This document shows, piece after piece, positions 4,901-54,200 of a stretch of DNA of 64,000 nt (positions are counted from its first letter, which is position 1; each line of letters begins with the position of its first letter). Location: assembly GCA_001244265.2 (NCBI GenBank), contig CDLV01000006.1, forward strand, positions 186,001 to 250,000, in the 5' to 3' direction. A program made the translations under genes and the position numbers. A model generated the notes under the pieces. The model was not told the DNA's origin. It was given only the letters and a program-made list of their open reading frames with translations, and made no database searches. Source of the DNA: Microbotryum violaceum (taxonomy: Eukaryota).

Positions 4901-7120
4901 GACAGCTGGGCTCGGTGAACGATTCAAGCCTAATTTCTACGTCGACTACAAGGGAGGCCTCGATGGTCACGATTATCGAATGATCGCGCAGATAATTCCC
5001 TTCATCGCTGAGGTCATGTTGAGCCGGTCCATGATCACTCCAGTGACTAATCGCTGCTGGAGTACCCTTGGAAAGTTGACCCATCATATGTTCGCTCCCT
5101 CCGCAACAATTATTGATCAGTACGCCGTGAGTTGGCATGGTATCCGTCGAATGATGAGGCCAGCTAGCTCGAGACTAAAGGGAACTTTTTCGTGCACAGG
5201 ACGACTATCGCGAGCTAGCGCGAGCATTTGTCCAGGCTTCGATGACCCGCAATTTGACATTCACCTTGGCTCGCGTCAAGTACCACCACCTTCTCGAGCT
5301 TGAAGGAGCCATTCGGCGCTTCGGACCTCCTAAGCTCTTCGATTCATCGGTGGCCGAGTCTGCAAACAAGGCTGTGCGCCAAGCCAATATGCGAACCAAC
5401 CATCAAGCTCCATCGCGTGACGTGGCGCAGACTCTAGCGGAGACAGCCGCGCTCACTTTTGTTGCGGGTGGGGGTCTTTGGCGTCATGGTGGCCGGGCTG
5501 TCTCGCTCGGTCCTGCGGCAGCGAGTCTAATGGACAACGCGGTGATCAGGTCTTGGTTCAAGGTCGATGAGGATGCGGAGACGCAGGATCGGAGTGAGTG
5601 CATATTTTTCTTGGTGCCATACGATGCTGATAGGCCACTGTTCCTCGAAGCTGACTCGCGTACCGTTCTGACCGCCGTTCCCCGGCACTAGTCGGCTTTG
5701 ACTATCATCGTTCTCAACAAGTGCAATCCTCGTCGGAGCTCGAACACGATCCTATCTACCGGCATCTCAAGGCGGAAGGGTCGGTCTCCGCGTATGACCA
5801 CTTTCGCGCGGCCAAGGCCGCCACACTTCCGAATGGTGATCGGTGCCTGCTTCGACATTGGTGCTTTGTGCGCACTTCACCCAATGTGAGTCCTGCCGTA
5901 CGCTCTTTGACACCATCCTTGGGGTAAATACATGGTGCCCTATCTGTTATGCTATCAGTCAGGACTCCGTATCGGCCGAGTCATATCCCTGCTAGTGCCG
6001 ACTACCGTTCGCACGGTTCAAAGCAGCCTGATCGACGAGGGGTTCGCACTTGTAGAATTCGCCCGCCTCGGCGAAGAACTCGGTTCGACTGGCTTCGTCC
6101 GACTGTCTCTCGAGCCTCACCCCTCTGTAGTGTCAACGAAGGTGAGTCAGCGCATAGAGGAGGCAAAGCTCTTGCACTATCAGCTCACAAAAATTTTTCT
6201 TCCCCGTCTACAGTGTTTGCTTGGAGTTGCCAGTGTACAGCATGATTGCGCATCAGCGAACTGCGCGCGCCCTCGGCCTCAAAAAAAGGCTCGCATTGAG
6301 CGCATCGACACAGGCGGACTCGAGAATGCCTTGACCCATAGGGACGATCGTAATTGGCTGCTGAGTACCATCACCCAGCGATCGCACGACTTGGTTGCCC
6401 CGCTTGCGCCGCCAGTTCCAGCCGCGGAAGATTTGGACAGCTTCGTACAAAAAGTCCGCCTATCGCAACCTCCAGCTCAGACACGCAATGCGGTGGGCCC
6501 AAGCGTGGCGCGTCGTGGCCGACCCAGGGTAGGGATCGTATGCCTCTACTTGTCTGCCCAGTCAATGGGACTGCTCGCGCTAACATGTACCTCATCAATA
6601 ATCAGCTTCCAAGCGTTGCAGAAACCGACAGCGACAGCGAAGACCAAAGGAGCCAGTCCCAGCGGCAGCCCGATGAATTCGTGAGTCACTTCAAGTTGAC
6701 TGGCCTCTGTCAATGTCAAGAAACGCGGCGATTATGCGGAGGCTTATCAGGCTCTAATGCTTTACATAGGATGGAGAGTCGCAGCAGGAGGAGTCCCTGC
6801 GCGAGGAACCGCAGGGTGAGAGGCTCGAGCGCGAGCAATCAGCTGGGAACACCGAGTCGGAAAGTGATGCGCAAGATGTGGATTCAGAGCGCGCCCACTC
6901 AACGAGTAACGCGGTTTCGGGGAGGATGAGATCGATGAGGAGTGCAAATGTACGTACACTCGCTTCTATCTCTTACAGCTCTACAGGCAGTGGGTGGGGC
7001 AAAGCGCGAGCTCAAGCTGATTCGGAGCCCTCCATCGCGGCCTGGCATTCAGTCTTCGTCGGAAGGCTATGTTTCGGATCCGGAACCTTGCGATTTGAAG
7101 GCGAAGCGAAAGCGAAGTAG
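1911..7120 (+). mobile_element. Multi-exon DNA-transposon transposase-like gene (CACTA/EnSpm/Plavaka-related fungal family), probably pseudogenised
   Basis: Spliced exons give an N-terminal CxxC..H..H finger (YRCAVCP..HFKTNVH), FLDDFGGGGSKRY, FPCRCC, HRDTPPDMLHVLLLGPVKYLW, KYHHL..IRRFGPPKLF..ESANKAVR..NHQAPSRDVA and VQHDC..C, motifs I recognise from basidiomycete TE-associated proteins. In-frame TGA at 3883-3885. TIRs not found. Confidence 0.6.
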
Positions 7121-8380
7121 ATGAAGATCTGAAGCGTCTGCAATTACCATTCGCGTTGACTTTCTGCACTCCTTTTGAGCGTACATGGCCGGCGTTCAGC
7201 TCGAGAATTTCAAGCTGCCCCCAATTCCAATTTATGACAGCGCATTTTACAGATTAGCAAAGTATTAGTCGTTGGGTAGAGCCTCTATGGTTCAGTCGCT
7301 GCGGAATCTTCGAAAAATTTTCAGAGTAGTAGATTAATTCCCATTGGCCGCGTTGGTTCGAAATACCCACGTATTGCCCCACGGAAGGTGCCCATGATAT
7401 GGTCGTCACGTCGGGCTTTGGCCGGCGCGAAGCCAAGGCCTTCGGACCGACTGCTCAGGAATGTTGAGATGCGCGATCGGAGGTGATCGGAGTCGCGTAG
7501 TCAGAAAGCACTGAGTTTTGCGTTGTTTGCCTTTGCTTTGTTTACCTTGTGCCCATCCATTGACTCCGAGTCAGCAACCCCTCCCCCCCTCTCTCTCTTT
7601 CTTCGTCACGCTGTGTTCAACTCCATGTCCGCAACTCCCATACAGCAAGAGTGGGTGAGTTCCATGAATCCGATCATAGTAGTACGGCCGGCGGAGAGCG
7701 AGCAGACCTTTACGTGCGGCCAATGACCGTATCCTTCAACTATGCACTTCGAACCCGCATGTCCAGTCCCGCAAATACCCCCTCCCCAGTGTCCCGGCGT
7801 CAAGTTCTTTCCTCAATTAGTAACACCGAGTCTACGGTGAGAGTGACCTCCTCGGATGAACCAAACCGACAGGTACGTCCTCTCTCGGCGGAACGGGGCT
7901 TGTTTACTATGAGGAGCAGCGCAGTGAGCAAACGAAGATGCCGAGTAGAAGAGGATAGGGAACGTTAAGGGAAAAGAGAGGGAGAGCCGCGCTAGTCGCT
8001 GCCTCGGGTAATCTAAGTCAGAATCTAAAGAGGTCCGAGCGCGCCCGAGTTCCCATCCCCCAATCTCCGTATGCTGGAGTTGAGAGCGCCCCTGCAATGT
8101 AGTGCGCACGATGTCATTTACAAGGGTCGGGGGTGTTCGTTCAACTTCAATGATTGACACAGGCTCCTTTGTACACGTGCAGTGAAGTAAAACCCCTCCC
8201 CACAACAGAAGACAGATCGGCGGAGACTCTACCACTGTACCCACTCGCCGTTGTCGAGACTTGACAAACGCGATCATTGCGGGAGATAAAGACGCGCCGG
8301 AGCACGAGGAGCGTTCGTTTCTCCCGCACAGGATCGTGCTGACGTGTCGAGCTGACTCATCTTCCTCTCTTCCACATCAC

Positions 8381-19700: not shown

Positions 19701-21496
19701 TACATTCCTTAACTCACGCTTTTTTATACTAGTTATTATATAACTAGTTAGGGTAAAGCGCCCCAAGCCCTCGCCGATCGAAGCGCAAGAGGGAAGAATC
19801 CTTTTTCAAAGCTGCGCGGCTTCGCTGAAGCCTTGCACTCAATGCCGGTCTCGCAAGACGAATCTGATGTTGGAGTCAATTGCTCAAGGTATGAGCTCTC
19901 CCAAACTGCATCGGATCCTTCCTTGTCACCAGAACACTCACATTGGTAATGGTTTATTTTGAGCAGCTGCAAGAAGAGGAGTGAGGTCGTCGATCCTAAG
20001 CCGTGCCATTATGAGTAGAACGGATACATATAATGATATAAAGATCACGGCTAGTGACATTTGCGAGAACACCTGATAATGTGCTACTAGGTTCACGGAT
20101 GGTTTGGAAAGGCAGTCAATGATCTTCCTTGTCCAAGTTGCTGAGGCAGGAAATACAGCGAGGAATGCTATACAAGGTGTCCCACCCCCTATGGACACAT
20201 CCAGCAGCTCTGAGATGATTGATCGTCTTAGTCATTGTATTTCAGCCTAGAGTGTGTGTGTGGGGGGGGGGGGGGGGGGGGGGTTACTCGGTCCGGGGTC
20301 CGGACGATGGCCGGGGGTTGAAAGGCACGAGATCGCTCTCGGAGCCTCACTGCTTCCGAGTCGAAACTGAAAGGATCAAACGGTGTAATTCGCAGGCGAA
20401 GAAAGACTACTAAAAGGACTAAGGTCAAGAGACGGCATATGGGCCATTTCCTCGCTGGCATCCGGACTGATCCCCCCATTTCTCAGGGCTTACATCAGTT
20501 TTCCCTCCTCCTCCTCAGCACCCGGCTCCTGAGGGTAGATAGGGCAACTTTTCCACGATCGCCTCCACCAATGAGGTATGCTACTCCATATTCTCTTGGA
20601 ATGTCCACCACTTTGGCATACGGCCGCCCCATACTATTTGCCCAGCCCCTTTAATGAACTTATGATGCCATGCTCAGTCCAGCCGCGTCCGTGATCGCTC
20701 GTCTAGAGTCCAGTAGATATCCGCTTTTAGGATCATTGGCATTGCAAACCACCACGAATGTGCCCTCGCCAGTTTGGCGGCAAAGGTACATAGCTCCTGT
20801 ATCTGCAGGTCAGTCCATCCTTGTTGCCGCGCCTCGAGTTCGCTTCGCGTAGCCCGATACAGGTCCTGATCAATTTTGTCGCGAAGTTCTTGTCCCGATG
20901 GGCACTCTCCAAACGCGTGTTTCTCTGTTTCTTCTTCTGCTCCACATATCACACACCCAGGGGAGGTCCCCAGTCTCTCCGAGCATTGCGAAGCAGTGGG
21001 TAGAACATGTGCCCGCATTTGGAGCTGTGTCTGTGCGGCATACGTTGAGACTGCGCGAAGATATGGGTACTGCCCTGCTGAATGTCCGAAATTCAATAGG
21101 AGTCAAACACTGTCGCCTGTCTTTTTTGGTAGGAACTTCAACTGCCAGTCTTCTTGAAGGTCGTAAATCTTCTTTCTGAAATCGCCTTCCAGCCATTCGA
21201 TCCTGTTGGCGGTCATTTCTGCGATCGTCCACTGCGGGAGAGCGAAGTCGGGGAAAGGCACAATGAGGTCAGGCTGTGAATGTCCGTTCTTGGCCGCTTC
21301 ATCTGCTCTTTCGTTTGCGCGCGATGCATTGTCCGTCCGTCCCGTATGAGCTTTCACGTGTTGTATTTCGATCGTGTCGTTTGTTGCGAGTAAACGTTCG
21401 AGCCATGTGTAGTGTGCAAGCGCAGCCCTCGGTTTCTTCGGTGCAACTTCGCCCTGCCTAATCTTCTCGGCAAATCTGACCGACGTCAGATGATCT

Positions 21497-21807
21497 TGTT
21501 GGAATCAACGTTCCCGAATAGATCAACAAAAGAAGAAGAACGGCTGAACCAGGAGTCGAACCTGGGTCGCTTTCATTAATCGGAAAAGCTTTGACCTCTA
21601 AGCTATCCGGCCCCCGATATCAGTGCGAGGTCTACTAACACCTTAAAAACTTCCCCTTAGACCTTTGCACTGCTGCCAGGCTATTGCAATGCCTCGACTT
21701 TAAGTCCCAATTGGACTCTGTGTCAAGCTTCTGCGGCTGCTCCGGCAGCTATGTGCGGCCTCATTGGAAAGATTTACAAAAAAGGTTCTCCAATTCCGGT
21801 CCTCACA
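21497..21807 (-). mobile_element. 311-bp solo-LTR-like insertion containing a tRNA-like sequence (Helenus-type TRIM candidate)
   Basis: TG..CA ends (TGTTGG...CTCACA) and a perfect 5-bp TSD GATCT at 21492-21496 and 21808-21812. Excision restores the LINE RNase H frame (IPVLAD-HLTSVRF). Confidence 0.85.
21541..21612 (-). tRNA. tRNA-like sequence / pseudo-tRNA with intact Pol III A and B boxes and an aberrant anticodon arm
   Basis: GGCCGGA TA GCTT AGAGGTCA AAGC T TTTCC GATTAAT GAAAG CGAC CCAGG TTCGACT CCTGG TTCAGCC G, followed by TTCTTCTTCTTTT. D and T arms are perfect; the acceptor stem has one mismatch and the anticodon stem/loop is non-canonical. Confidence 0.75.
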
Positions 21808-22303
21808 GATCTGCGAGAACCGGAATTGATGTAGTAGCTCCGAAAGTGTAAGATTGTATAGTCAGTGCTCCCATAATCAGGGCTGTCATTTCCGCTTGCA
21901 TGATTGACGCGCCCGCAAACAAAGCTGCCCGGGCCTCCCAATACGGTCCCACAACTGCTGCGGCCGCGGAGGTGAATCCCGTGGGTAGGACAATAAGTGA
22001 GCCATCTGTAGCCCAAATGCGCTGTTGTCTCATTTTGAGTATGGGAAGAATTACACCCTGAATCTGATTTTCGAATTCGGTTGGCCGCTCGGCTCTGTTT
22101 CGCAGGAGTTGGACTGCCATGGTCCCTCAGCTAATGTCAGTTCATCAAAGCGATCCGACCACTGCCGCCCCAATCTGGTATTGGGATTTAGCCAATCGGG
22201 AAAAAGGTTCGGTCGATCTCTCTGTAGTCCTTTCTAGAGCTCCCGTAGATCCGTAAGCCGAGCTGGAAGCGCCGCCATTGCCCGCCGTAACTGTGGTTCG
22301 TTC

Positions 22304-22497
22304 TTTTGGAACCCTGAGGCCCGAGGCACGAGGTACGTAAGTAAGAGAGCCGAAGAAGAGAGTAAAGATAGTTGGAGAAGAGAGAGAAGCGCTAAGGGCG
22401 CGCGCACTTGGAAGGCTAGAGGTGCGCGCGCGGCTAATATCAACAACTAGATACTAAACTATTCTAAGTGGGATGAAACAGGAATACCCTTTTGACA
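22304..22497 (-). repeat. Copia 3' LTR
   Basis: Matches 26353-26546 with two substitutions that I could see; preceded on the minus strand by the PPT. Confidence 0.92.
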
Positions 22498-22513
22498 CCC
22501 CCCCGTGCTGTCA

Positions 22514-25354
<2,841 letters not shown>

Positions 25355-25916
25355 CTAGCCAGATGCCGCCAGCTTTTTAAGTGTCTGGACGGAAGCATGG
25401 CCGTAGCGGCGGTGAAGGGTAAGTAAAGGGAGCCAACTGGACTTGGTGGCGGCGAGAGCGGGGGCAGGAGCTAGCGATGCGCCCTTGAGTTCCTTCATGG
25501 CGTTCTTGAGCTCGAAGTATTTCGTGCACTTGACCGAGTCAGGACACTTGTCCGCCCAATGCTTCCCTTGACGCACGCTGGGCAATTGCTGGGAGCGAGT
25601 CCAGATCGGTCCCATTTCCCCTTCCTGCCAGGTGCCGCACTCTTTGTCTGAACGTCCGCCTTCGCGACGAGGGCTGGGGTAGACTCGTTGCGTGAGATTC
25701 GAGCAACGGCCTCCATGGATGCGAAGATATCCTCTGCCCTGGGGAGCTTGTTTTTGTCGGCCTGAAGCGCGTAGAACGTGGTACGCCAGCTGTCGAACAG
25801 GGGCGGCAGATTGTCCATTGCGCGGGCCGCCATTGCCTGTTCCATATCGAGCTGGGCCATTCGAAGGCGGTTTATGAGGACCAGTGCTCGATTCGACCAG
25901 TCGATGAAACCTTTCA

Positions 25917-26313
<397 letters not shown>

Positions 26314-26352
26314 AGCGTCTTGAGCGGCTGGTAGCTCGTTGGGCTCATAACC

Positions 26353-26546
26353 TTTTGGAACCCTGAGGCCCGAGGCACGAGGTACGGAAGTAAGAGAGCC
26401 GAAGAAGAGAGTAAAGATAGTTGGAGAAGAGAGAGAAGCGCTAAGGGCGCGCGCACTTGGAAGGCTAGAGGTGCGCGCGCGGCTAATATCAACAACTAGA
26501 TACTAAACTATTCTAAGTGGGATAAAACAGGAATACCCTTTTGACA
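26353..26546 (-). repeat. Copia 5' LTR
   Basis: Starts TGTCAAAAGG on the minus strand and is followed directly by the PBS GGTTATGAGCCC. Confidence 0.92.
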
Positions 26547-31942: not shown

Positions 31943-33595
31943 CTATGCGATCCAGTTCTTGAACGCATACCTGGTCAGAGAGCACGGGTCAAAACGCTCA
32001 GCTTGGGACTGCCACCAGTAAAGGTCTTCGCCAGCACTCACTTTTCGACAATCTTGGTCCTGTGGTCCTTGTCGTGACCGCGACCACCACGTCGACCACC
32101 TTTCTTGCTTTCGTTCGCTCGCTCGACTGGCACTTTGCCTCGCCTCATCCCGCTCGAGACCCACTCCTTCCAAAGATTGCCTTCCGGCGCGACGTTTCGC
32201 AGGTTGTCGGCAAGCTCGTCGCCGAGTTGGAATGTCACGGGCGCGTTCGGGACTCGAGACGGCCCCGATCGGAAACGAGTCAGTCCACCTTCGGATAATC
32301 TGGCTTTCCTGACCTTCATCGCCGCGGCCTTTTCGGCCAAAGAAAGCTGTCTCGACGCCTCGATCGCGGCATTGACGGACGGCGCATTGAGCACGGAGGC
32401 GATCCTGGCCTTGGATGCTCGCCGTTCGGCCAGTTTTTGCTGCTCGTCCCGAACCAAGAGCTTCCTGTTGCGCTGTTGTCGCGTTTTCCGCTTGGGAGGG
32501 TTCTTTTTGGAGGGGGCGTTGCCCACATCACCGGTCTTGGTGGCGTTGTGGCCCTCGTCCTGATCCTGATTCTCGTCCTCGCCCGACCCGACTTCATCCT
32601 CGAACAATTCCCACAAGTCTTTTTGCTGGTTCGAGACACGTACTCGGTCCATGGCCTCTTTGAAAGGTTGGCCGCGCCCTTCGCGCTCCTCGAGGGTGGT
32701 GTAGGTTTCGAGCGCGGACGAGAGGAGCGCTTGGTGCTGGTCGTGGGCGGGGTTGTAGGACGTTCCAGGATGGGGCGTAGGCACAGATCTAGGGCCATGT
32801 GAGTCGGCCACACCGAGCAATGCATGTGAACGTAATGATGATGGTGGCTGTCGATGCCGATGACGATGTTGAGAATGTGGCAACATGATCAAGGCCAGAA
32901 TCAATTGGTCTGGTCCGCAATTCTTGATCGAGACAAGAAGGGGGGTTGCTCACCTTGGGCTTGATCTGACCGAGATGCCCCCGCATGACTTGCTGCATCG
33001 ACATGTCGATATCCATATCGTCTTGCTTGACGGATACGACACTGCCCCACGCATCGTAGTCTTTGCCGCCACCGATGATCAATCCGTTCTGACTCGCGGC
33101 AGGCCTCTCGTCGGTGGTCTTGACGGCCCACAGCCCCTGACCCTGTCCGTTGCGCCCGACGATGCGCTTGAGACGTTCTTTGGTCTCGCGATTGACCTTT
33201 GCGGCTTTACGTTGCTCCTTCTTGACGATAGCCGAGGTATGGGCCGGTACGGCGCGAGTCGAGATCGGTGGCACGGCGGACCGAGCAGTGAGGATCTGCT
33301 CCGACTTGAGCGGCTTCTTGAAAGAGGTGCCCTTGCGCATCTTGGCCGCGGCGGAGGCCTGGACGTGGTCACGCAGCAGAGCATGGCGCACCGAGCTGGA
33401 CCCGACGCTATCGACTTGGAACAGCGCATCGGCGTCGATGTCTGTTGCGGCAGCTCGAGATGCTCGACTCGCAGCGGCGGTCGAGGTGGTCGGTGCGCGT
33501 GCCGCTCGAGCCGATTCGGCCGAGGAGGGAGCGGCCTTCTTGGAATTGGCTCGTCCGGATCGTCGAGTGGTCATCGGGGGTGCGACTTTGGACAT
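31943..33595 (-). CDS. NOP53: 60S ribosome biogenesis protein Nop53/GLTSCR2
   Basis: LFQVDSVG, KPLKSEQIL..RSAVP, PHPGTSYNP..HQALL, LGDELADNLR..PEGNL, and terminal KIVEK|YAFK. Confidence 0.88.
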
Positions 33596-33983
33596 GGCCG
33601 CGAGTCGTCTCGAGTGGGTAGAGGAGGTTATAGAGGTTTGGCACGCGGTGAGGGTGCACGTGAGCAGAGGAGAAGCAACGCGCCCAGAGTCGGCTTCGCC
33701 TCAATCACCGCCTCAATCACTCGCATGAGTTCGCCTCAGTCGGCTGCGAAGCAAGGCAGCGCACTGGCGCACTGGCGCACTGGCGCCACTGGCAGAGCAA
33801 GGCCTATTATGCCGCAGCAGCGCGAGAGGCGGTCGAGCTAATGGCGAATTACAAACGACCAAGCGCCTCACTGTCCGATGATAATACAGCGCGCTCAGCT
33901 CGCGTTTACCCTCGTTTACCTCGTCTTGTCGCACCTCGCTTGTCGACGTCGCACGACTGCCCGCTGTTTGCCCCCTGCAACAG

Positions 33984-36900
33984 TTGCCCACCGTGCCACT
34001 CCCACCTCGCTTGACCGCCAGGACCCTGGCTAAAGCTCAAGCCAAAGCCAACAAGGGTGCCGCTGCTGCTGCATCGACCGACGAAGCCCACTCACCAGCG
34101 CTGCATTCGCACTCGCACTCGCACTCGCACTCGCATTCGGTCAGCTCGTGGATCGTCCAGCAGACCAACGCAGCGACGGAGCTTGACGCATCCGACGCAT
34201 CCGACGAGATGGACCGTGATTCCGGTACCCACTTCGCTTCGAGCCCTGACGGCAAAGCTGCAGAGGCAATCCGATTCGCTGTCACCAGCGGCTCCACCAC
34301 CGCGAGGACCGAGGCCCTCGAGCAGCTCGTACAGCTCGTCACTTCACGTGAGTACCTGCAGCGGGTACTTTCATAGACGTCGGAACGCGGAAACAGCGAT
34401 TTGTTGACTCGATGATCCGCTCCTCAGGTCCTCTTGATGAGGCTCAACTTCAAGATGTCGTGCGAATCCTTCTCCTCACTCTCGCCTACACCGACGGGCG
34501 AACACGCCACCTCGCACTGCAGGCTCTCGAGCATGTGCTTCTCCAGTCTCATGAACAGCAGAAATCGAGGCCATCGACTACCGCACATGGCCCGCCACTT
34601 GTAGCCGGTCTCTTACGCTGGCTCGAAATCGAGGCCAAACGCGCTGAGAAAGGGGGTGCCGCTTCGTCTCGCTTCGTGCCTCTTACATGGGCCTGCATCG
34701 TGTATTCGACCTGGCCCGTCGGAGGGCAACGAGCCCAAAACGGTGAATGGTCCAATCTCGTTAACTCGCTCGCCGCCTTGGTCTACTGTTTCCTCGACGC
34801 TCGTCATGACGTCAAGCCTTCGCTGCGCAAAGCCGTGCTCACCGTGGCTCGCCGCGCCGTGCGGTCGGCGCCCAACGTTGTGCCCTGTCTGGTGCAGCTG
34901 CTCACCTCAGCCACAAGCAGTGCGACCGCTTTACGGAATGCTCCGCTCCTGGGGCTCACCATGGATGTGGTGCTGCGGTTGAAGCCCAAGAAGGGTGTCG
35001 ACAGGTCCGCAATCATAAAACAGGTGCGGCCGGCCGTTCAAACCTTCTGGGCCCAACACGTTCTCGGGGCCAAGTCGCTTCCGCCAGAGCACGTTATGCA
35101 TGCCTTTGACGATTTCCTCGCCGCGACAACCGGAGATGATGCTGCAGAATCGTCGTGGTTCGTCACGCTGGAATCATCACTGTCGCAAAACCCGGAGGTC
35201 GGCATCGCATCCGTGGAAGCGTTGCTCTCGAATCTACCCGAGTCGGTGCTTTCAGCGACGCATTTCCGCGGACGGTGTATCCCTCTGGTCTTGGCCTCGA
35301 CCAAGTCGGCCGCGGTGGCAACTCGAGAAGCCGCGACGCATGTAGGGTGTAAGCTCGTAGCAGGAATCGAATCGGCCTCCCCCAACGACGTCGGAAAGCT
35401 CCGTAAGTCCGTGCTCGACTCGACCTGTCAACTATTGAAATCGGGCAAGACGGCGTCTCCCGACCATCGCGCGGCTCTGTACATCATCTTGTCGTCAGTC
35501 CCACCGTCCGAGGTGACCTCGGTCGAAATACAAACGACCGCCCTCGCGGCGTTGTCCAAGGAGTCGCATGAGCCCGTTGTGAGGGCCTTGCTCCAGGCCG
35601 TCTCAATCCATGTGCCCTATCTATTGGCTCAAAACGTCGCGATCGGCGCATCACAGACCGGCTCCCTTGTCAAGGCGATGCAAGAGACGAAAGCGACGAC
35701 CCGCCGTGCAGCCCATGCTGCCGTCGGGGATGTATTCTGGGCTCTATCTCAATCCCTGACCGAAAGAACAGATGCAGCAGTCGCTTTCGCGACAGGGGTG
35801 CTTCCGGGAATAGAGTCGGCCCTCAAATTGCTGGGATCGAATCCTGTCAACGCTCCCTCAGGTCCGCTGGAAGGGTATGTTGCCGTTGCTGTGTTGAAGA
35901 CGCAGCTGCGGCTATGGGACGTGAAAAAGATTGGTAAGGATGAAAGCTGTTTTCGCTTGGCTCTGTAGGTTTGTGCTATGTTGACTGATGTTGCGATGCG
36001 CCACTCCACGCAGAGGACATGCTCAAGGCCAACGTCACCATGAAAGGCTTGCTCGTGGGTGGGGCGAAGCCGTCGTTTTTGCTCTGGGACAAGGTATACC
36101 GCAAAGCCACCACGGCCGAAGAGGAGCTTTGGCTCCTTCGGGCCATCGAATCTGTCATTATTGCAGACGCCACAACCGTGGAAAAGAATGATGCATTGCA
36201 GTCTTCTCTCTTCCAAGTCATTGCCCACCTCATTCTGCACAGCAGTTACTTTGAAACGCGGACAGCCGCGACACGAACTCTAGCTTCCCTGCAGCGTACC
36301 AACTCGAATTTGGTCCACTCGATCGTTGGAAAAGGTTTGCTCGATTGGATCACTCAGGTGAATATCTGGACTTGCAAGCGGAGTCAAGCCGTCGCTCATC
36401 GAGCTACCACGCTTTTCCCTGGCAGGATCCCTCCGCGGGAAAGACCAAGCCGACAAGCGAAGACGCGCCGACGCCTGTAGACCTTGCACCTCGCTTTCGA
36501 CCCATTCTCTTGGCGCTGGCCCAATTTGAAGACGAGGTCGAGCCCACGCAACGGGAGGAGCTATTGACTCGACTCGTCGTTCTCGCCCACCATCCCCGCA
36601 TCACTTCAGGGAGCTCTGCTGTTTGGGTCGACATGCTTTTGCGCGCAGGCTTGGCTCCCGAGAAGGTTGTTGAGAACCGTGTGGATGAACTGCTATCGCT
36701 GGTTCTCACGAACGCTCCTGCCGATGTCGAGGTTGGTCACCAAATTGCTCCCCCACTTGCCGTGGTGTCCCTTCTGACTTTCCGTTTGATACATCATTCG
36801 TAGGCTAAAACCCTTCCCGAAGCAGCGTACGCGGCAGCTTCGTCACTCGCGTTGATCAACCCCACCACCATCATACCCCGCTTGTTTGAGCAATTGGGTG

Positions 36901-39900
36901 AGGATCTCGATCCGAAACAACTCGACTTCATCGGCACCACGGAGTTTGGGATCTGGTCGACACCTGAAGGCACGACCTTTGTGGATGGTGAGTGATTAGG
37001 CCAAGCGGCGGGTCGTGTTGTCGATAACTGAATTACTCTCACTCTGCGCGCTCGCAACAGCGCTTGGGACGGCAAAGGCGAACGAAAAGGGCACAGCAGC
37101 CATCAAAAAGTCCAAGGATCGCGAGATTGAGCTCTGGGAGGCTGAGTTGCGCGTGGCGCTGGCCCGCAAGAAACCACAGGTCTCTACACTATCCAAGGCC
37201 GATCAAAGGATCTTCGAGCAGCAACTTGTTGTGGAGGCCGACACTCGAAGAAAAATGCGCTCCGCGTTGGGTCGAGTGCGTCGAGGATTCAAGCTTTCAA
37301 TCTGCCTCGTGCAATCGCGTGCAGAATTGGTCAACGAGTATCTCGCATCCATCATCAGCGAGGTCCTGTCCGTCATTGCATCCCCCGCGGCTAGCCTCGT
37401 CGCCGAAGATGCCTTCGACACATACCTTCTACTTGGTCGCGTCTGTTCGCCTCGGCTCGGCTCCTTTGAAGGAGCGCTAGGTGTCGCTGTGCTGCGGAGC
37501 TTGGACGCGCCTGTTGTACCCGAAAGCTTTCGCGCTGAGCCCCTGTCTGCGCTGGTGACGCGAGTACTGTACCGCATCCGCTTCCTCGCCGAAGAAACAC
37601 CGTTTGACTCCGCGACCTTTGCTTACGCCGCGCCCCTCGTCAACAGCGCAACACGCGCCGTCGATCCCAAATCAGCGTCGCTCGAGTCCGTGCTCGAGCA
37701 AATGACGCTTGCTTTGGACTTCCTAGCTTACCATGCTCGTGCTTGCGCCGGGACGGCCTTCCCCCGTCTTGCCGTCATCAATGATATCCTTTCCGTGTTG
37801 TCGTCCTTCCCTGCATTGGCCCGCACAGCGACCACCGCCTTGGTCGACGTTTGCGAGGCCATCAGGGACAATGCGAGTGCCTTAGAGATCGAGACCGTCC
37901 TGGCCGCGCTCAGGTCCGAGGAGACTTCGGTCAGATTCGCGTGTTTGCAGGCGATTCAACCGCTCGACTTGACCGACCTGGTCTTTCCGGCCAACCTTTG
38001 GGTCGCATGCCACGACTCAGACCACCGAAATCGGCAATTAGCGGTCACGGCGTGGGACGACAACGCACTGGACGTCCCGGAATCGTTTCTGGAGATCCTC
38101 CTTCCTCTTTTGAGTCATCACGCCGCAACGATCCGAACTTCGACCGCCGAGGCCGTCGTCGCTGCTCTTGCCACCCACCCTACTCAGTTAGACGAGACAA
38201 TTGCACAGCTGGCAGCAGAGTATCGAGACAAGGCGAAAGAGATCGTACCGCAGTACGATCAGTTCGGCATGATCATCGAGGAGTCGCTGACAGCCGAAGA
38301 TCCGTGGAAAACGCGCGAGGCGTTGGGCACGACCTTGCGCTTGGCCGCGCCTTTGTTCGAGCCGAGACACGTTCAGAGCTTCTTCGACCTTCTCATTGAC
38401 GAAAGCGCCCTCGGCGATCGCAAACAAGCCGTCCGATCAGAAATGCTCGAGGCTGCGATGTCAGTCATCGACTTCCATGGCGCGGAAAACCTCCAAGCGT
38501 TGATTAACCGCTTCGAAGAGTTTTTGCGGCGCCCGAGCAAGGGGGACGAAACGCAGGACTACATCTTCGAGTCGCTTGTCATCCTGTTGGGCCGACTAGC
38601 GCGCCATCTTGACCCTGCGGATGAACGCGTCAAGACCGTCGTTGCTCGACTTGTGGATGCTTTAAAGACACCTTCCGAGGTTGTTCAAGCCGCAGTATGT
38701 GACTGCTTGTCTCCCTTGGCTCGAGTCGTCTCGGATGATGTTCCTGCACTCGTTGATCAGTTGTTGGACGAACTTTTCCACGCGGAAAAGTACGCCGAGC
38801 GACGTGGTGCAGCCTTTGGGTTAGCCGGATTCGTTCGAGGGCGAGGTGTCTCCACGCTGAGGGAGTTCAGCATTCTGGGCCAACTGCGAGATAATGCGGA
38901 GGACAAGAAGTCGATGCCAGCGCGACAAGGTGCCGTCTTCGCCTACGAGATCCTGTCCACCGTCTTGGGCCGGCTGTTCGAACCTTACGTGACCGACATC
39001 TTGCCGACGCTCCTCGCTTGCTTCGGTGACACCTCTAGGGAGGTGCGGGACGCGACTCAAGATGCGGCGAAAGCGATTATGAGTCAACTCAGTGGTCACG
39101 CCGTCAAGTTGATGTTGCCGACTCTGCTCGAAGGGCTGGACGAGAAGCAGTGGAGAGCCAAGAAGGGCGCGATCGATATGATGGGCAACATGGCATTCCT
39201 GGCCCCTCGTCAGCTGTCGCTCTCGTTGCCAACAATCTTGCCCCGCCTTACGGAGGTCCTGATGGACACGCACAAGCAAGTGCGCGAGGCGGCCAACTCG
39301 AGTTTGATGCGTTTCGGCGAGGTAAATACTTCCTCAGTGGCGTCCGGGTCAATCATATTGGTGCTATCATGTGGACGCTGACTTCTTTGTGTTTGCGCAG
39401 GTCGTTACCAACCCCGAAATCCAAGTCATGACAAGCACTCTGCTGGATGCTCTCGTTGATCCAGCCAAAAAGACAGCAAAGGCACTGGATGCGCTTTTAT
39501 CTACGACTTTTGCTCATTTCATCGATTCCTCCTCTCTTGCCTTGGTGCGTACAGACACGTCACCAATCGCTACATTGCAAGACTGACCCCTGCTTGCCTT
39601 TCACCTGGATAGGTCGTGCCAATCCTCGAACGTGGATTACGCGAGCGAAGCGCCGATATCAAGCGCAAGGCCTCGGCCATCGTTGGCAACATGGCCACAA
39701 TCACTGAGTCCCAAGATCTTATTCCTCACTTGCAGCAACTCGTCCCCCTACTGCGAGGCGTGTTGATCGATCCTGTCCCCGAAGCTCGCTCCACGGCGGC
39801 CAAATCAATGGGTGCACTCGTCGAACGACTAGGCGAGAATAACTTCCCCGACCTCGTCGAGAGCCTCATGGCTGTCCTCAAATCACCTTCGAGTGGTGTC

Positions 39901-42900
39901 GATCAACAAGGCGCGGCGCAAGGGCTCGCAGAAGTCTTGCAAGCGTGCGGTATCGACCGTCTCGAAGGAGTGCTGCCGACAATCTTGAGCAACACGAGCA
40001 ACCCGCGCGTTTACGTGCGTGAGGGTCACATCTCGTTGCTAGTCTTCTTGCCCGCGACGTTCGGCGAGCGTTTCTCGCCTTATCTCGGTCGTATCATCCA
40101 ACCCGTGCTCAACGGTCTTGCCGACGATTCGGACTATGTTCGCGATGCCTCAATGCGCGCTGGCCGTATGATTGTCGCCAATCATAGCACAAAAGCGATC
40201 GATTTGCTGCTTCCCGAGCTCGAGAGTGGTTTGTTCGACCCCAGTTGGCGGATTCGTCAGAGGTCAGTCGCACCGAGATCGATCGGTGTTCATCTGTGAT
40301 GTGCGTGACTGACTTGAGTCCTTTACTTGCCTTCTTACAGTTCGGTCCAGCTTGTGGGAGAGCTTCTCTTCCGAGTTTCTGGTGTCTCTGGTAAAGTGGA
40401 CGGCGACGAAGACGCCGAGGACGATGTCGACGAGCCGAGTATCGGGTCGGACGCAGCCCGCAAAGCTCTTCTTGAGACCCTTGGCCGCGAGAAGCGCGAT
40501 TGCGTTCTGTCTGGCCTCTATATTGTGCGCCAAGATTCGGTCGGCGTGGTGCGCCAAGCGGCGTTGCACGTTTGGAAGGCTCTGGTATCTAATACGCCTC
40601 GCATGGTTCGCGAGATCCTCTCGGTGCTCAGTAAGTCGTGGACGTCGGCATCTCTCACGATCTGGTCGATCTTCTGACGTTTCTGTTGCCCCACTTACCT
40701 TGCCAGTGCAAATCATCGTCCGAATTCTGGCAGCCCCAGGAGCAGAGCAGCGAGCGGTGAGTTTGTTTGGATATATTTTGTTGTGGACATGAGCTGATGG
40801 GTAATCTTTCCTGCAGACTGCTGCTACGACACTTGCCGAGACGTGCCGCAAACTGGGCGAGGCGGTTATTGGCGAGGTTATTGGCATTCTTCGTAAAGCC
40901 ATGTCTTCCTCCGATCGGCGCCAACGAGAAGGCGTCTGCTTGGCGCTTACAGAGTTGATGGCTAATACCAACCGATCCTCGCTCGAAGCGCACGAGAGCG
41001 CCATCATCGAAGCTGTGCGCAATGCGCTCGTCGATCCCGAGCCAAGCGTGCGTACTGCCGCGGCAAGGGCATTCGACGTGGCCCAGCAAGTTATTGGCAC
41101 ACGGTCAATCGACGAAACAATCCCGACGCTGCTTGACGCTCTGCAGCAGCCGGGCGAGACTGCGGATGCTGCCCTCGCCGCCCTCCAAGAGGTGAGTAAT
41201 ATTCTGATGCAGGCGCATAGCTGCGGCACAGTCCTCGTAATGAGTACCAACACCAACTTCATCGATCCTAGGTCATGCAAGTGCGAGCGGAGAAGATCTT
41301 CCCAGTCCTGATCCCTCGCCTCATCGCGCCCCCAATCACCGCGTTCAATGCTCGAGCTCTCGCGGCCCTGGTTCGCGTCGCTGGTAGCGCGGTCGGTCGT
41401 CGACTTACGCAAATTATTGATGCCCTTCAGCATGCTCAAAGCGTTGAGTCCGATAGTTCGACCGCAGGAGACTTGGACGATGCCCTGTCGGCCGTTCTTG
41501 GGTCGGTTGAGGATCACGACTCGGGCCTCGGAAGTCTTCTGATGCATATGCTGTCACTCGCCAAAGCCGAAGCTCCGGCGAAACGAGTCGTTGGCTGCAA
41601 TCTCTTTGCGCGCTTTTGCTCGGTCACGCAGGCCGACTTTGATGAGTGAGTGGCCTTGAAGTTGCTGTAAAGAAGAGGATGACTGACGCCACGCTTGCTC
41701 GCACTGCCAACAGCTTTAAGGTCGATTGGATTCGTCAGCTCGTGTCGCTCTTGGACGATCGATCCCCTGAGGTAATTGATGCGGCTTGGGAAGCACTTGA
41801 TGCGCTTGTCAAGACGGTCGAGAAGGATGACATGGAAGGCTTCGTCGTTCCGTTGCGCCGGACGATCGAATCGGTCGGTACGCCCGGTGTCGCAGTCGTT
41901 GGTTTCTCGAGGCCCAACGGCCTCAAACCCCTGCTGCGTCAGTTTTCCGGCTTGTAGCCGAATCAATAGCAAGCTATGTGGCTGACGGGTACTGCTGGTC
42001 TGCTCATTGTACAGCCATTCTTCTGCAAGGCCTCTTGGCAGGGACGGGCGAGCAAAGGGAATATTCGGCTTACGCTCTGGGTGACCTCGTCGAGCGTACT
42101 GACCCCGCTGCTTTCAAGCCTTACACGATTCGTGAGTTTCAGATTCGACTTGCAGAAGCGAAAAGACCGCCCTTGCCTAACGATTCCCCGACCCCGTAAT
42201 GCCCTTCCCCGATACACAGAGGTGGTCGGCCCGCTTATTCGAGTAATCGGCGACCGCTTCCCGCCGCCAGTCAAATCGGCCATTCTCTCTACTCTGACTG
42301 TCCTTCTCAACCGGGTTCAGCAGTTTGTGAAGCCCTTCTTCCCACAATTACAGCGAACGTTCATCAAATCCCTCACGGACGCAAGCAGTCTCTCGGTCCG
42401 AAATCGGGGCGTCACCGCTCTGGGCGTCTTGATGCAACATCAACCTCGTGTCGATGCGGTTGTGACCGATCTGGTCAACTTGGCAATGACAGAGAGTGGC
42501 GAGCTCCGAGATTCGGTCGTCAACGGTTTGGCCGCTGTCGTTGTCTCGGGTGGCAAGAATTTGACTTCGGGACCCCAGGCGGCTTGTGTGGATTTGGTTT
42601 CGGAAGCGTTCTCGGAGCACGGACGAGGTGAGTGTTTTCTTGGGTGTTCACATCTTGCTCTGATCGAGTATCTGACACCAGAGGCGTTATCCCCTCCTCC
42701 TTTTAGAGCCTTACAATCTTGCCATCTCGCGCCTGCTCGCCGGCCTTGCAACCCACGACCCTAGCTCGATTTCGTTCCTCGTCCAGTCCTTCCTGCTGGG
42801 AGAGCTTCCTTCGACTGCGCTTTCTTCGATCGCAATGCGTGAACTGATCGACACCGCCCCGCGAGTCTTGTATGAAGTTGATCCCTCGGGGACGGTGGAG

Positions 42901-51295: not shown

Positions 51296-54200
51296 ATGAG
51301 GTTCTTCATGGATGACATGGAGTTCATCTTTCCTTACGACAAGATGTACCCTGGTCAGTCACCCCTCTCTGTGCCGTAGCAGGCGTGGGATCCTCCTGAG
51401 CTGTTCCACTGATCGCTGTTCGCTGTTCACTCCGTCCGTCTACACCTCGCATGCGTCTCTCCCTCGACTCGTACCAACTTAGAGCAATACGCCTACGTAC
51501 ATGATCTCAAACGCTCGCTCGACGCCGAAGGGCATTGTGTGCTCGAGATGCCCTCGGGAACGGGCAAGACCGTCTCGCTGCTCAGTCTGATTATCGCGTA
51601 CCAATACGTCAGTCTGTAGGCATGGGCTTGTTCGGGCCCACAGACTACCATCTCGACACATTCCTCTTGAAACTCTTCCGCTCTTGTTACAGCACGAACG
51701 CAAGATGGGTCGCCCCGAACGCAAGCTGATCTACTGCTCGCGAACGGTGCCCGAGATCGAGAAGGCTTTGGCCGAGTTGAAGAGGCTGATGAAGTACAGG
51801 TTCGTCCTCAGAAACTGTCTTTGGTCCCAACTATGATGTTCTCTCTCAACAGTTCTGAATGCGACTTTCCTCTCGTTCACAGGAAAGAAGCGTACGGGAT
51901 CGATGACGTCGACTTCCTCGGCATCGGTCTGTCCTCGCGCAAGAACCTGTGCATTCACCCCTCGGTCAAATCGGAGAAGAAGGGAAAGGCCGTCGATGCG
52001 AGGTGTCGTGACATGACCAATGGGGCTGCCAAGGCAAGGTGGGAAAAGGATCCCGAGAGCGTCGAGTTGTGCGATTTCCACGAGGTTCGTTTCCTTGCGC
52101 TTGGAGGAAGTGACAGCGATGAGGTCAGCCGTTGACCACGGATCTTGGTGACTACGACAGAAACTGGGCGAAATGGACCAGGATCGGTTAATACCCTTTG
52201 GGGTACATACGTTGGATGATGTCAAGGCGTATGGGATCAAGTATGGCATCTGTCCCTACTTTGCGATCAGACGAATGGTCAGTTGAGCTCTCTACAATTC
52301 CTTCTTCATTTGTTGCTTGTCTAATTAATCTACCTTTCGCTTAGTTTGTCCACGCGAGCGTCATAATCTACTCTTTCCACTACTTGTTGGACCCCAAAGT
52401 AGCCGAGCAGGTTTCCAAAGAGATGAGCAAAGATTCGATTGTCGTCTTTGACGAGGCACACAACATCGGTCAGTCGGATCGCTTTCCCGGTGGACAGTTT
52501 GTGCGTCAATGTTGAGTTCACCTTGGCCTTTCCTTTCTAGACAACGTTTGCATCGAATCCCTTTCCATCGATCTCACACGGCCGATCTTGGACAACGCGG
52601 CGAGATGTGTCGAGAGTCTGGACGTAAAAATCAAAGAGTAAGTTTGGATCACGGAAAGTTCCCGCCGCGGACGCTCTCTCATAGATCTAGAACCATATTG
52701 CAGGATGAAAGAAACGGACAAGGAAAAATTGGAAGAGGAGTATGCAAAATTGGTGGAAGGGTTGAGAGGGAATCTGGGAGAGGATGAGGAAGCCAACGGA
52801 GAAGCCGATGACTTCATGGCCAATCCCAGTAGGTGCCTTCCCTTCGCGCTCGCATTGCGTTCTCGTAGGCTGATACGGTCACTACCAGTCCTTCCGGCCG
52901 ACATCTTGCAGGAAGCGGTGCCAGGCAATATCCGTCGAGCGGAACACTTCACCGCCTTCCTTGCTCGTTTCGTGGAATATCTCAAAACCCGCACACGCGT
53001 ACTGCACGTCGTCGCCGAAACACCGGTATCCTTCCTTCAACATCTTAAGGATATCACCTTCATCGAGAAAAAGCCACTCAAGTTTTGCGCCGAGCGGTTG
53101 TCTTCGCTCGTTCGAACACTCGAGCTGACTCGCATCGACGAGTTCTCGCCTCTACAAAAAGTTGCAGCTTTCGCAACATTGGTCGCCACCTACGACAAAG
53201 GATTTCGGTTGATCCTCGAACCCTTTGAGACCGAGAATGCGACGGTGCCGAACCCTGTCCTCCATCTCGTCTGTTTGGACGCATCATTGGCGATTGCCCC
53301 CGTCTTCGAACGATTTTCGAGTGTGGTCATTACATCCGGAACCTTGTCGCCGCTCGACATGTACCCGAAAATGCTTGGATTCGAGGCTGCCGTGCTCGAA
53401 TCGTACGTCATGACTTTGTCACGAGACTGTTTCCTCCCCCTCGTTGTCACTCGAGGCGCCGATCAAACCGAGATCAGTTCGAGGTTTGAAGTGAGGAACG
53501 ACCCCGCTGTCGTGAGAAACTTTGGAACGCTTTTGGTCGAGATGGCCAAGGCTGTACCGGATGGTGTCGTGGCATTCTTTCCGAGTTATCTCTACATGGA
53601 GAGTATCGTCAGTGCTTGGATGGAGATGGTGAGTTGGCTGCATTCGGCGTTCAGCCTCAGCCCTCACTGTGTCGGCTAATGAGTCCTACCAATTCACCCG
53701 CAGGGCGTCCTCAACGAAGTGCTCAAACACAAGCTCATCTTCATCGAGACACCTGATGCACCCGAAACATCCGCTGCGTTGGACAACTTCCGACGGGCGT
53801 GTGATAATGGACGTGGGGCGGTGCTGCTCTCTGTCGCTCGAGGCAAAGTCTCGGAAGGGATCGATTTCGACCACAACTACGGCCGTGCTGTCATCATGTT
53901 TGGGATCCCATATCAGGTATGTCACAAGCCCTTGTGAGACGTGTTCAATTCATCATCAACGAAGTAGGATCTAATGAACGTCACCATTTTGTATGAACAG
54001 TACACCGAGTCGCGTATCCTCAAAGCCCGCCTCGAATACCTCCGTGACGCGTATCGGATCCGTGAGAATGACTTTTTGACATTCGATGCAATGCGTCACG
54101 CGGCTCAATGCGTTGGACGCGTCTTGCGCGGTAAATCGGACTACGGATTGATGGTCTTTGCTGACAAGGTGAGTCGAGCAAGTTAAGTACTTTATCAAGG

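Follow-up and report, generated by a model that had tools for sequence, protein, structure and literature searches.

Positions 21497 to 21807 of the window, the whole 64-kb stretch of DNA analysed here, hold a 311-bp insert that we consider likely to be the solo LTR of a Helenus-type family, and which probably adds a further example to a kind of mobile element that is known but has seldom been reported. The insert sits in a LINE remnant whose target letters it has duplicated, belongs to a multi-copy family with fixed ends, and carries a tRNA-derived module at a definite place within its layout. Helenus elements (TRIMp3; Kojima 2024, Biology 13:119, PMC10886601) are TRIMs whose LTR contains a tRNA-like sequence; in the sections of that paper cited here, the whole element consists of two LTRs around a short internal stretch that has a PBS and a PPT, under about 1.3 kb in all, box A (TRGCY..YGG) and box B (GGTTC) are conserved, and the fungal families have 5-bp TSDs and frequent solo LTRs. 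Several Helenus families occur per genome, with little in common beyond the tRNA-like part (PMC10886601). The first-pass annotation, which had taken the insert for a solo LTR of a tRNA-bearing element, is supported in kind by the layout, the termini and the multi-copy family, the layout having been compared by eye.

The insertion and its host LINE

The solo LTR (21497-21807, minus strand) is defined by its TG..CA ends, GATCT flanks, paralogous empty sites, unlike flanks at both ends in other copies, and Helenus-like layout. On the plus strand of the window its first letters are TG and its last CA, and the target-site duplication consists of a left copy of GATCT at 21492-21496 and a right copy at 21808-21812. 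When the insert and one GATCT are excised, the minus-strand frames 21803..22126 (...TTSIPVLAD) and 21103..21504 (..DHLTSVRFAEK...) fuse in frame, the joined LINE product reading VLAD|HLTS with the Asp codon GAT falling within the duplicated pentamer. Of 24 runs listed, 20, drawn from eight studies, contain the stretch in whole or in part, and contigs of four of these (X1, X9, X13 and X17, with four organism labels) were aligned to 20300-22300 at 80% likeness. Contigs in three of the four pass directly from 21491 to 21808, skipping 316 bases with five letters ambiguous (two contigs in X1, one in X9, two in X13 and none in X17). Because these contigs show many other differences from the window, they are paralogous LINE copies and not an allelic empty site, and the uninterrupted paralogous sites therefore prove an insertion with a 5-bp duplication, bearing out the earlier claim of a 311-bp TG..CA element with a perfect 5-bp TSD. 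The right LTR/LINE junction is spanned in all four runs with 0-4 other letters (contig records 7, 15, 30 and 23) and the left junction in three (contig records 5, 12 and 28), which indicates the same old insertion in every run and not a polymorphism. Of the listed runs that contain the stretch none is recorded as RNA; X17, whose run type is RNA only by guess, covers the LINE, the LTR and the junction alike. Most likely the copy at 21497-21807 itself has no activity and merely marks an old insertion. For the locus, the finding matters for annotation, as an old and fixed solo LTR within a dead LINE.

The host is a frameshifted remnant of an APE-type LINE with an RNase H and zf-RVT region (20437-22303, minus strand), recognised by Pfam, phmmer relatives and contig ends, and broken up by both the solo LTR and a neighbouring Copia element. 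A loose contig end that precedes 20437 sets its 3' boundary, and the alignment of other LINE copies extends to 22300. The downstream LINE piece matches Pfam RNase_H with an E of 1.9e-5 and 25.3 bits, just below the cut-off of 25.8, and the next LINE frame has a weak Pfam zf-RVT match. Searched by word index against longer proteins, the RNase H piece had no match at E<=1e-5, and exhaustive phmmer with the same piece found 25 relatives at E<=0.001. Among the eight of these 25 that were scanned with Pfam, two carry Exo_endo_phos and RVT_1, one of them with RNase_H in addition, one carries RVT_1 and RNase_H, three carry RNase_H and zf-RVT, and two have no domain; this domain set identifies the host as a non-LTR element of the APE type whose RNase H is C-terminal. 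Past the neighbouring Copia element no RT domain turned up, and the LINE copy therefore seems to be 5'-truncated. In the relative P0003 the motif DHLETVR, 63 residues past WASDGS, aligns with DHLTSVR of the window LINE, so that under the D-E-D-D scheme of acidic residues the split residue is the third acidic one, i.e. the second Asp. The first-pass annotation had placed the split at the third catalytic Asp; an Asp codon is indeed split, the ordinal being correct for the acidic residues and wrong for the Asp residues.

The tRNA-like module and the layout of the LTR

In the window the LTR runs in sense along the minus strand, which corrects an earlier note; a plus-strand reading was discarded, as it would put the tRNA-like sequence in antisense, whereas the published Helenus consensuses compared here have it in sense. 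The minus-strand letters run 5'-TGTGAGGA...TTCCAACA-3', and the order along them is the TGT.. start (TGTGAGGA), 195 nt, the sense tRNA-like sequence at LTR positions 196-267, a T-rich tract and the ..ACA end. The 195 nt form an upstream, U3-like part (21613-21807, minus strand), marked off by the position of the tRNA-like sequence and by contig depth, which is rarer than the tRNA-like part and varies more from copy to copy. After the tRNA-like sequence comes a T/C-rich, Helenus-like tail of 44 nt (21497-21540, minus strand), with TTTT at 21528-21531, or LTR positions 277-280 of 311, and ending in TTCCAACA; the letters after the module read TTCTTCTTCTTTTG / GTTCTTCTTCTTTTG and those of the LTR terminus ...GATTCCAACA.

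The module itself is a 72-nt tRNA-like sequence with a degenerate anticodon arm (21541-21612, minus strand), supported by ARAGORN, by Rfam RF00005 at 41.5 bits and by a fold check. ARAGORN reports it (minus strand, 21612-21541) as the single tRNA-like gene in 64 kb, labelled tRNA-??? with an undetermined four-letter anticodon, and the Rfam tRNA model, reaching 41.5 bits where the gathering score is 29, is the sole Rfam family at threshold within the 64 kb. The B box GGTTCGACTCC at 21552-21562 (minus strand) is exact, with one match in the window where 0.18 are expected. The A-box-like TAGCTTAGAGG at 21595-21605 (minus strand) has one mismatch to the consensus TRGCNNAGTGG, and since 21 matches of this quality are found in the window against 22 expected, it is alone not above chance. 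The acceptor stem has a C.A mismatch, the anticodon stem is 4 bp long with a loop of 8 nt, and the cloverleaf fold reaches -18.2 kcal/mol against -22.0 kcal/mol for the minimum-energy fold. The canonical cloverleaf, 7-nt loop and assignable anticodon of a functional tRNA gene are not found in it, and the module is a tRNA-derived relic and not a working tRNA gene. It had initially been described as a 72-nt cloverleaf with intact boxes and arms, followed by a terminator-like T-run: the length and the exact B box stand, the A box is one letter short of its consensus and the cloverleaf is degenerate; a tract does follow the module, consisting merely of TTTT 10 nt past the end of the tRNA-like sequence, with a further TTTT inside that sequence.

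This layout is that of the fungal Helenus LTR consensuses in DataS1 of PMC10886601, which start with TGT, carry a sense tRNA-like sequence toward the 3' end, continue with a T/C-rich tract containing TTTT or TTT, and finish in ..ACA, the likeness having been judged by eye and not by a computed alignment. The window LTR shares the TGT start and ACA end with fungal families such as Helenus-1_CCin and LTR-1_PGr; it shares with Helenus the tRNA-like module near the 3' end, which is in sense and has both boxes, A and B, and the T/C-rich TTTT tract next to it, as well as the 5-bp TSD, the solo-LTR form, the multi-copy state and the variable upstream parts. In Helenus-1_CCin the tRNA-like part starts ..gaccggatagct and is followed by gttttctttcc...caca (PMC10886601); compared by eye, the tRNA-like part in the window starts GGCCGGATAGCT against this gaccggatagct. 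Of the features by which Helenus is defined, a tRNA-derived sequence inside the LTR (41.5 bits against 29, with GGTTC and an exact B box) and LTR-type termini with a 5-bp TSD (TG..CA, GATCT) are both present, and so is a sense module near the LTR 3' end with a T-rich tract, the use of which as a mark of Helenus is our own reading and not a published criterion.

The likeness has limits. The window LTR is known as a solo form only, whereas Helenus has a two-LTR form with PBS and PPT; its tRNA-like sequence, unlike that of Helenus, is without a long variable arm and has a defective anticodon arm; and its A box is only partly kept, with TAGCT present and AGG in place of the Helenus YGG part, while GGTTC is present. 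The host also differs, in that the run contig sets comprise about 23 million letters and the window has a G+C content of 52-60%, unlike the large rust genomes. The fungal hosts named in the sections of PMC10886601 used here are Pucciniales together with Agaricus, Coprinopsis and Amylostereum, from a screen that was seeded from Repbase LTRs and hence not exhaustive.

The same LTR evidence would fit equally well a solo LTR left by a larger retrotransposon of the LTR class, whether autonomous or long and non-autonomous, into which a tRNA-like sequence had been inserted; this would not be a miniature TRIM and hence, strictly speaking, not Helenus. With its 311 bp the LTR does exceed those of the fungal Helenus rows listed (116-274 bp), although animal Helenus LTRs reach 323 bp (PMC10886601); the layout and the T-rich tail, moreover, closely match Helenus, and no coding element bearing the solo LTR was found in the 64-kb window, which leaves the larger parent a rather unlikely one. 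A Helenus-type LTR being the preferred reading, its counterparts in principle are Cassandra, a plant TRIM with a 5S rRNA-derived LTR module, and Ajax, both of which place the Pol III promoter of a small-RNA gene inside the LTR (PMC10886601). The earlier statement that Helenus is a TRIM with a tRNA-like LTR is borne out by the sections of that paper cited here. The Cassandra module is 5S, whereas that of the window is tRNA-like, and Rfam finds no 5S match in the 64-kb window.

Copies of the LTR in the run contigs

Far from being a single copy with ends of its own, the unit is multi-copy in the run contigs and its termini are shared. Distinct contigs over 21627 number 16 in X1, 16 in X9, 10 in X13 and eight in X17. 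At the left end contigs depart into unlike flanks just before 21496/21497 (five in X1, with an agreement of 0.5, three in X13 and two in X17), and at the right end they split off behind 21789, read ATAATAGATCCTCACA and then vary (four in X1, four in X9 and three in X13). Since contigs read ATAATAGATCCTCACA before diverging, the CACA terminus is common to the copies; contigs also pass into unlike flanks after ..TCCTCACA. Loose ends with unlike flanks, as expected of an interspersed family, thus occur in three of the four runs at each terminus, the flank consensuses at these ends (agreement 0.5-0.8) being too poor for calling a PBS or PPT. Other copies diverge from the window copy by roughly 5-13% (contig records 6, 14, 22 and 29), and the LTR family is not young. 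A 6.7-kb contig (X1 record 6) contains one further copy and is uninformative on internal length. Within the 64-kb window there is no second LTR copy, blastn at word size 7 giving chance matches only, and neither of two 24-nt stretches from the tRNA-like sequence had a match in metagenome scans (0 each).

The copies are unevenly represented along their length. Summed word depth in X1 is about 6100-7200 over 21506-21639 and about 1700-1900, about a quarter of this, over 21640-21773, with flanks at about 200-500 and single contigs of the window locus at about 75; summed contig depth is, as the tool warns, no copy number, and these values are to be read only as tens of copies, mostly of the tRNA-like core. 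This core (about 21506-21644) has four to five times the summed depth of the remaining LTR, and some X9 contigs leave the alignment at 21644. The excess may come in part from a separate SINE-like family, from other LTR families or from real tRNA genes. Among the six listed joints in contigs, none represents a copy without the tRNA-like part.

The abundance of the 3' part (in tRNA orientation) over the 5' part, as would result from 5' truncation, together with the Pol III boxes of the tRNA-like module and the presence of LINEs in the genome, could also suggest a SINE of tRNA origin, or some other non-LTR retroposon, that a LINE reverse transcriptase had copied. TRNA-derived SINEs (SINE2) do resemble the window element in having a tRNA-derived Pol III module and in being short, non-coding and interspersed. 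In the window element, however, the module is internal, 195 nt preceding it within the unit, and the far end of this upstream part is common to the copies. A SINE2 has a 5' tRNA head and an A-rich, simple-repeat or LINE-derived tail, whereas the tail here is ..TTCCAACA: the 3' end reads ..CCAACA, without an A-rich or repeat tail and unlike the 3' end of the host LINE. A SINE fits poorly because of these 195 nt and of a tail that is not SINE-like, and the TG..CA ends and exact, fixed 5-bp duplication are likewise unlike SINE2, making such an origin improbable.

The window copy departs from the others at its upstream end, where a 19-bp inverted repeat without spacer (21791-21828, 17 of 19 pairs; repeat search) crosses the right junction, one arm being the 19 bp 21791-21809 at the insert's plus-strand end and the other 21810-21828 in the LINE flank. 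A palindrome of such quality occurs only once in the window and in none of 10 shuffles. The first 18 nt of the window LTR (minus strand) differ from other copies, which have ATAATAGA in place of CCAATTCCGG; the private letters, about 10 nt of the inner arm, exactly mirror the flank CCGGAATTG. The upstream end of the LTR is thus an inverted copy of the adjacent flank that differs from other copies, a new oddity of this locus. That the whole insert is filler DNA from a tRNA locus, added by template switching while a break in the LINE was under repair, with the inverted flank as a trace of fold-back priming, is barely credible and has been dropped, since this unique palindrome is the point in its favour, whereas a unit with the same two ends recurs elsewhere amid other flanks in the run contigs, and with merely about 10 nt of the inner arm private a later, local templated change fits better. 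For the Helenus-type LTR we suspect such a change, with CCGGAATTGG putatively private to the locus and copied from the flank; the common end TCCTCACA and GATCT alone already pair at 8 of 10 positions, and a fold-back template switch in replication or repair may have extended this chance quasi-palindrome.

The neighbouring Copia element and the proposed history

The same LINE remnant has received a Copia element (22304-26546, minus strand; LTR alignment, Pfam and PBS match), which adjoins the solo LTR at 500 bp and has 194-bp LTRs, the TSD CGTTC and, directly after the 5' LTR at 26341-26352, the PBS GGTTATGAGCCC of the anticodon-loop iMet type. Its LTR pair shows two differences in a 196-nt alignment, its domains are RVT_2, rve and SH3_retrovirus, its PPT reads ..ACGGGGGG, and its frames for gag, integrase, RT and RNase H are broken by frameshifts. 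The Copia LTRs end in ..AAAA and not in ..CA. A 232-bp inverted duplication of part of the Copia gag, 99.6% identical (25541-25771 and 26082-26313), lies between gag and the 5' LTR.

The likely mobiliser of Helenus is Copia, and a PBS of the type GGTTATGAGCCC opens most fungal Helenus internal parts and is dominant also in their Copia partners, according to the sections of PMC10886601 cited here. The window genome is like Helenus hosts in having a Copia with an anticodon-loop iMet type PBS, and this element is plausibly a partner of the sort suggested for Helenus in fungi, which is context and not proof of a partnership. The last 8 nt of the Copia LTR end TTCCAAAA and the solo LTR end TTCCAACA agree at seven positions; beyond these 8 nt no likeness between the two LTRs was found, the local score being 16 against a shuffle mean of 16.9, with 224 of 300 shuffles as high. 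Helenus and its Copia relative likewise have LTRs that are otherwise unrelated (PMC10886601).

From these elements a history of the locus may be proposed, in which a two-LTR parent would have been reverse-transcribed and inserted by a Copia-type integrase into the already dead LINE, giving the 5-bp duplication, and recombination between the LTRs would afterwards have left a single one. In an active element the tRNA-like module would serve as an internal Pol III promoter, following the model in PMC10886601, by whose own account the use of Pol III by Helenus is unproven. [quoted passage not shown] The role as a mobile tDNA-like chromatin boundary that the first-pass annotation offered as an alternative is, like the use of Pol III, speculative.

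Kojima proposes that Helenus arose by insertion of a SINE into a TRIM LTR (PMC10886601). It is possible, though doubtful, that the compact fungal genome of the window, outside the rusts and the three Agaricomycetes, unites a Helenus-type LTR family with a Pol III promoter, a several-fold commoner free tRNA-like core that is perhaps the SINE-like progenitor, and a recent Copia of matching PBS type. If so, both the origin of Helenus by a SINE entering an LTR and Pol III-driven LTR retrotransposition would be testable in one small genome. Such a host would extend the range of Helenus beyond the rusts and three Agaricomycetes reported in the cited sections of PMC10886601, and would offer a simpler system in which to examine the part of Pol III in driving such elements and to identify the Copia that mobilises them. 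Helenus-type elements also inflate predictions of tRNA genes and seed Pol III promoters across genomes.

The 3' end of the host LINE is adjoined by an unrelated 115-bp repeat (20319-20433), the summed depth of which in X1, at about 12000 against about 300 nearby, is the highest in the aligned stretch. In other loci the ends of this repeat adjoin the LTR just past its tRNA-like part, on opposite strands (joints 20431->21521 and 20318->21537). The 115-bp repeat has no Rfam match and no second copy in the window; directly to its left, at 20250-20284, lies a (TG)n run followed by a long G run. Beside this nest of transposons stand ordinary fungal genes, encoding Nop53 (32038-33700), GCN1 with a fungal HEAT domain (34352-40299) and the HBB domain of an XPD/Rad3-type helicase (52642-53679).
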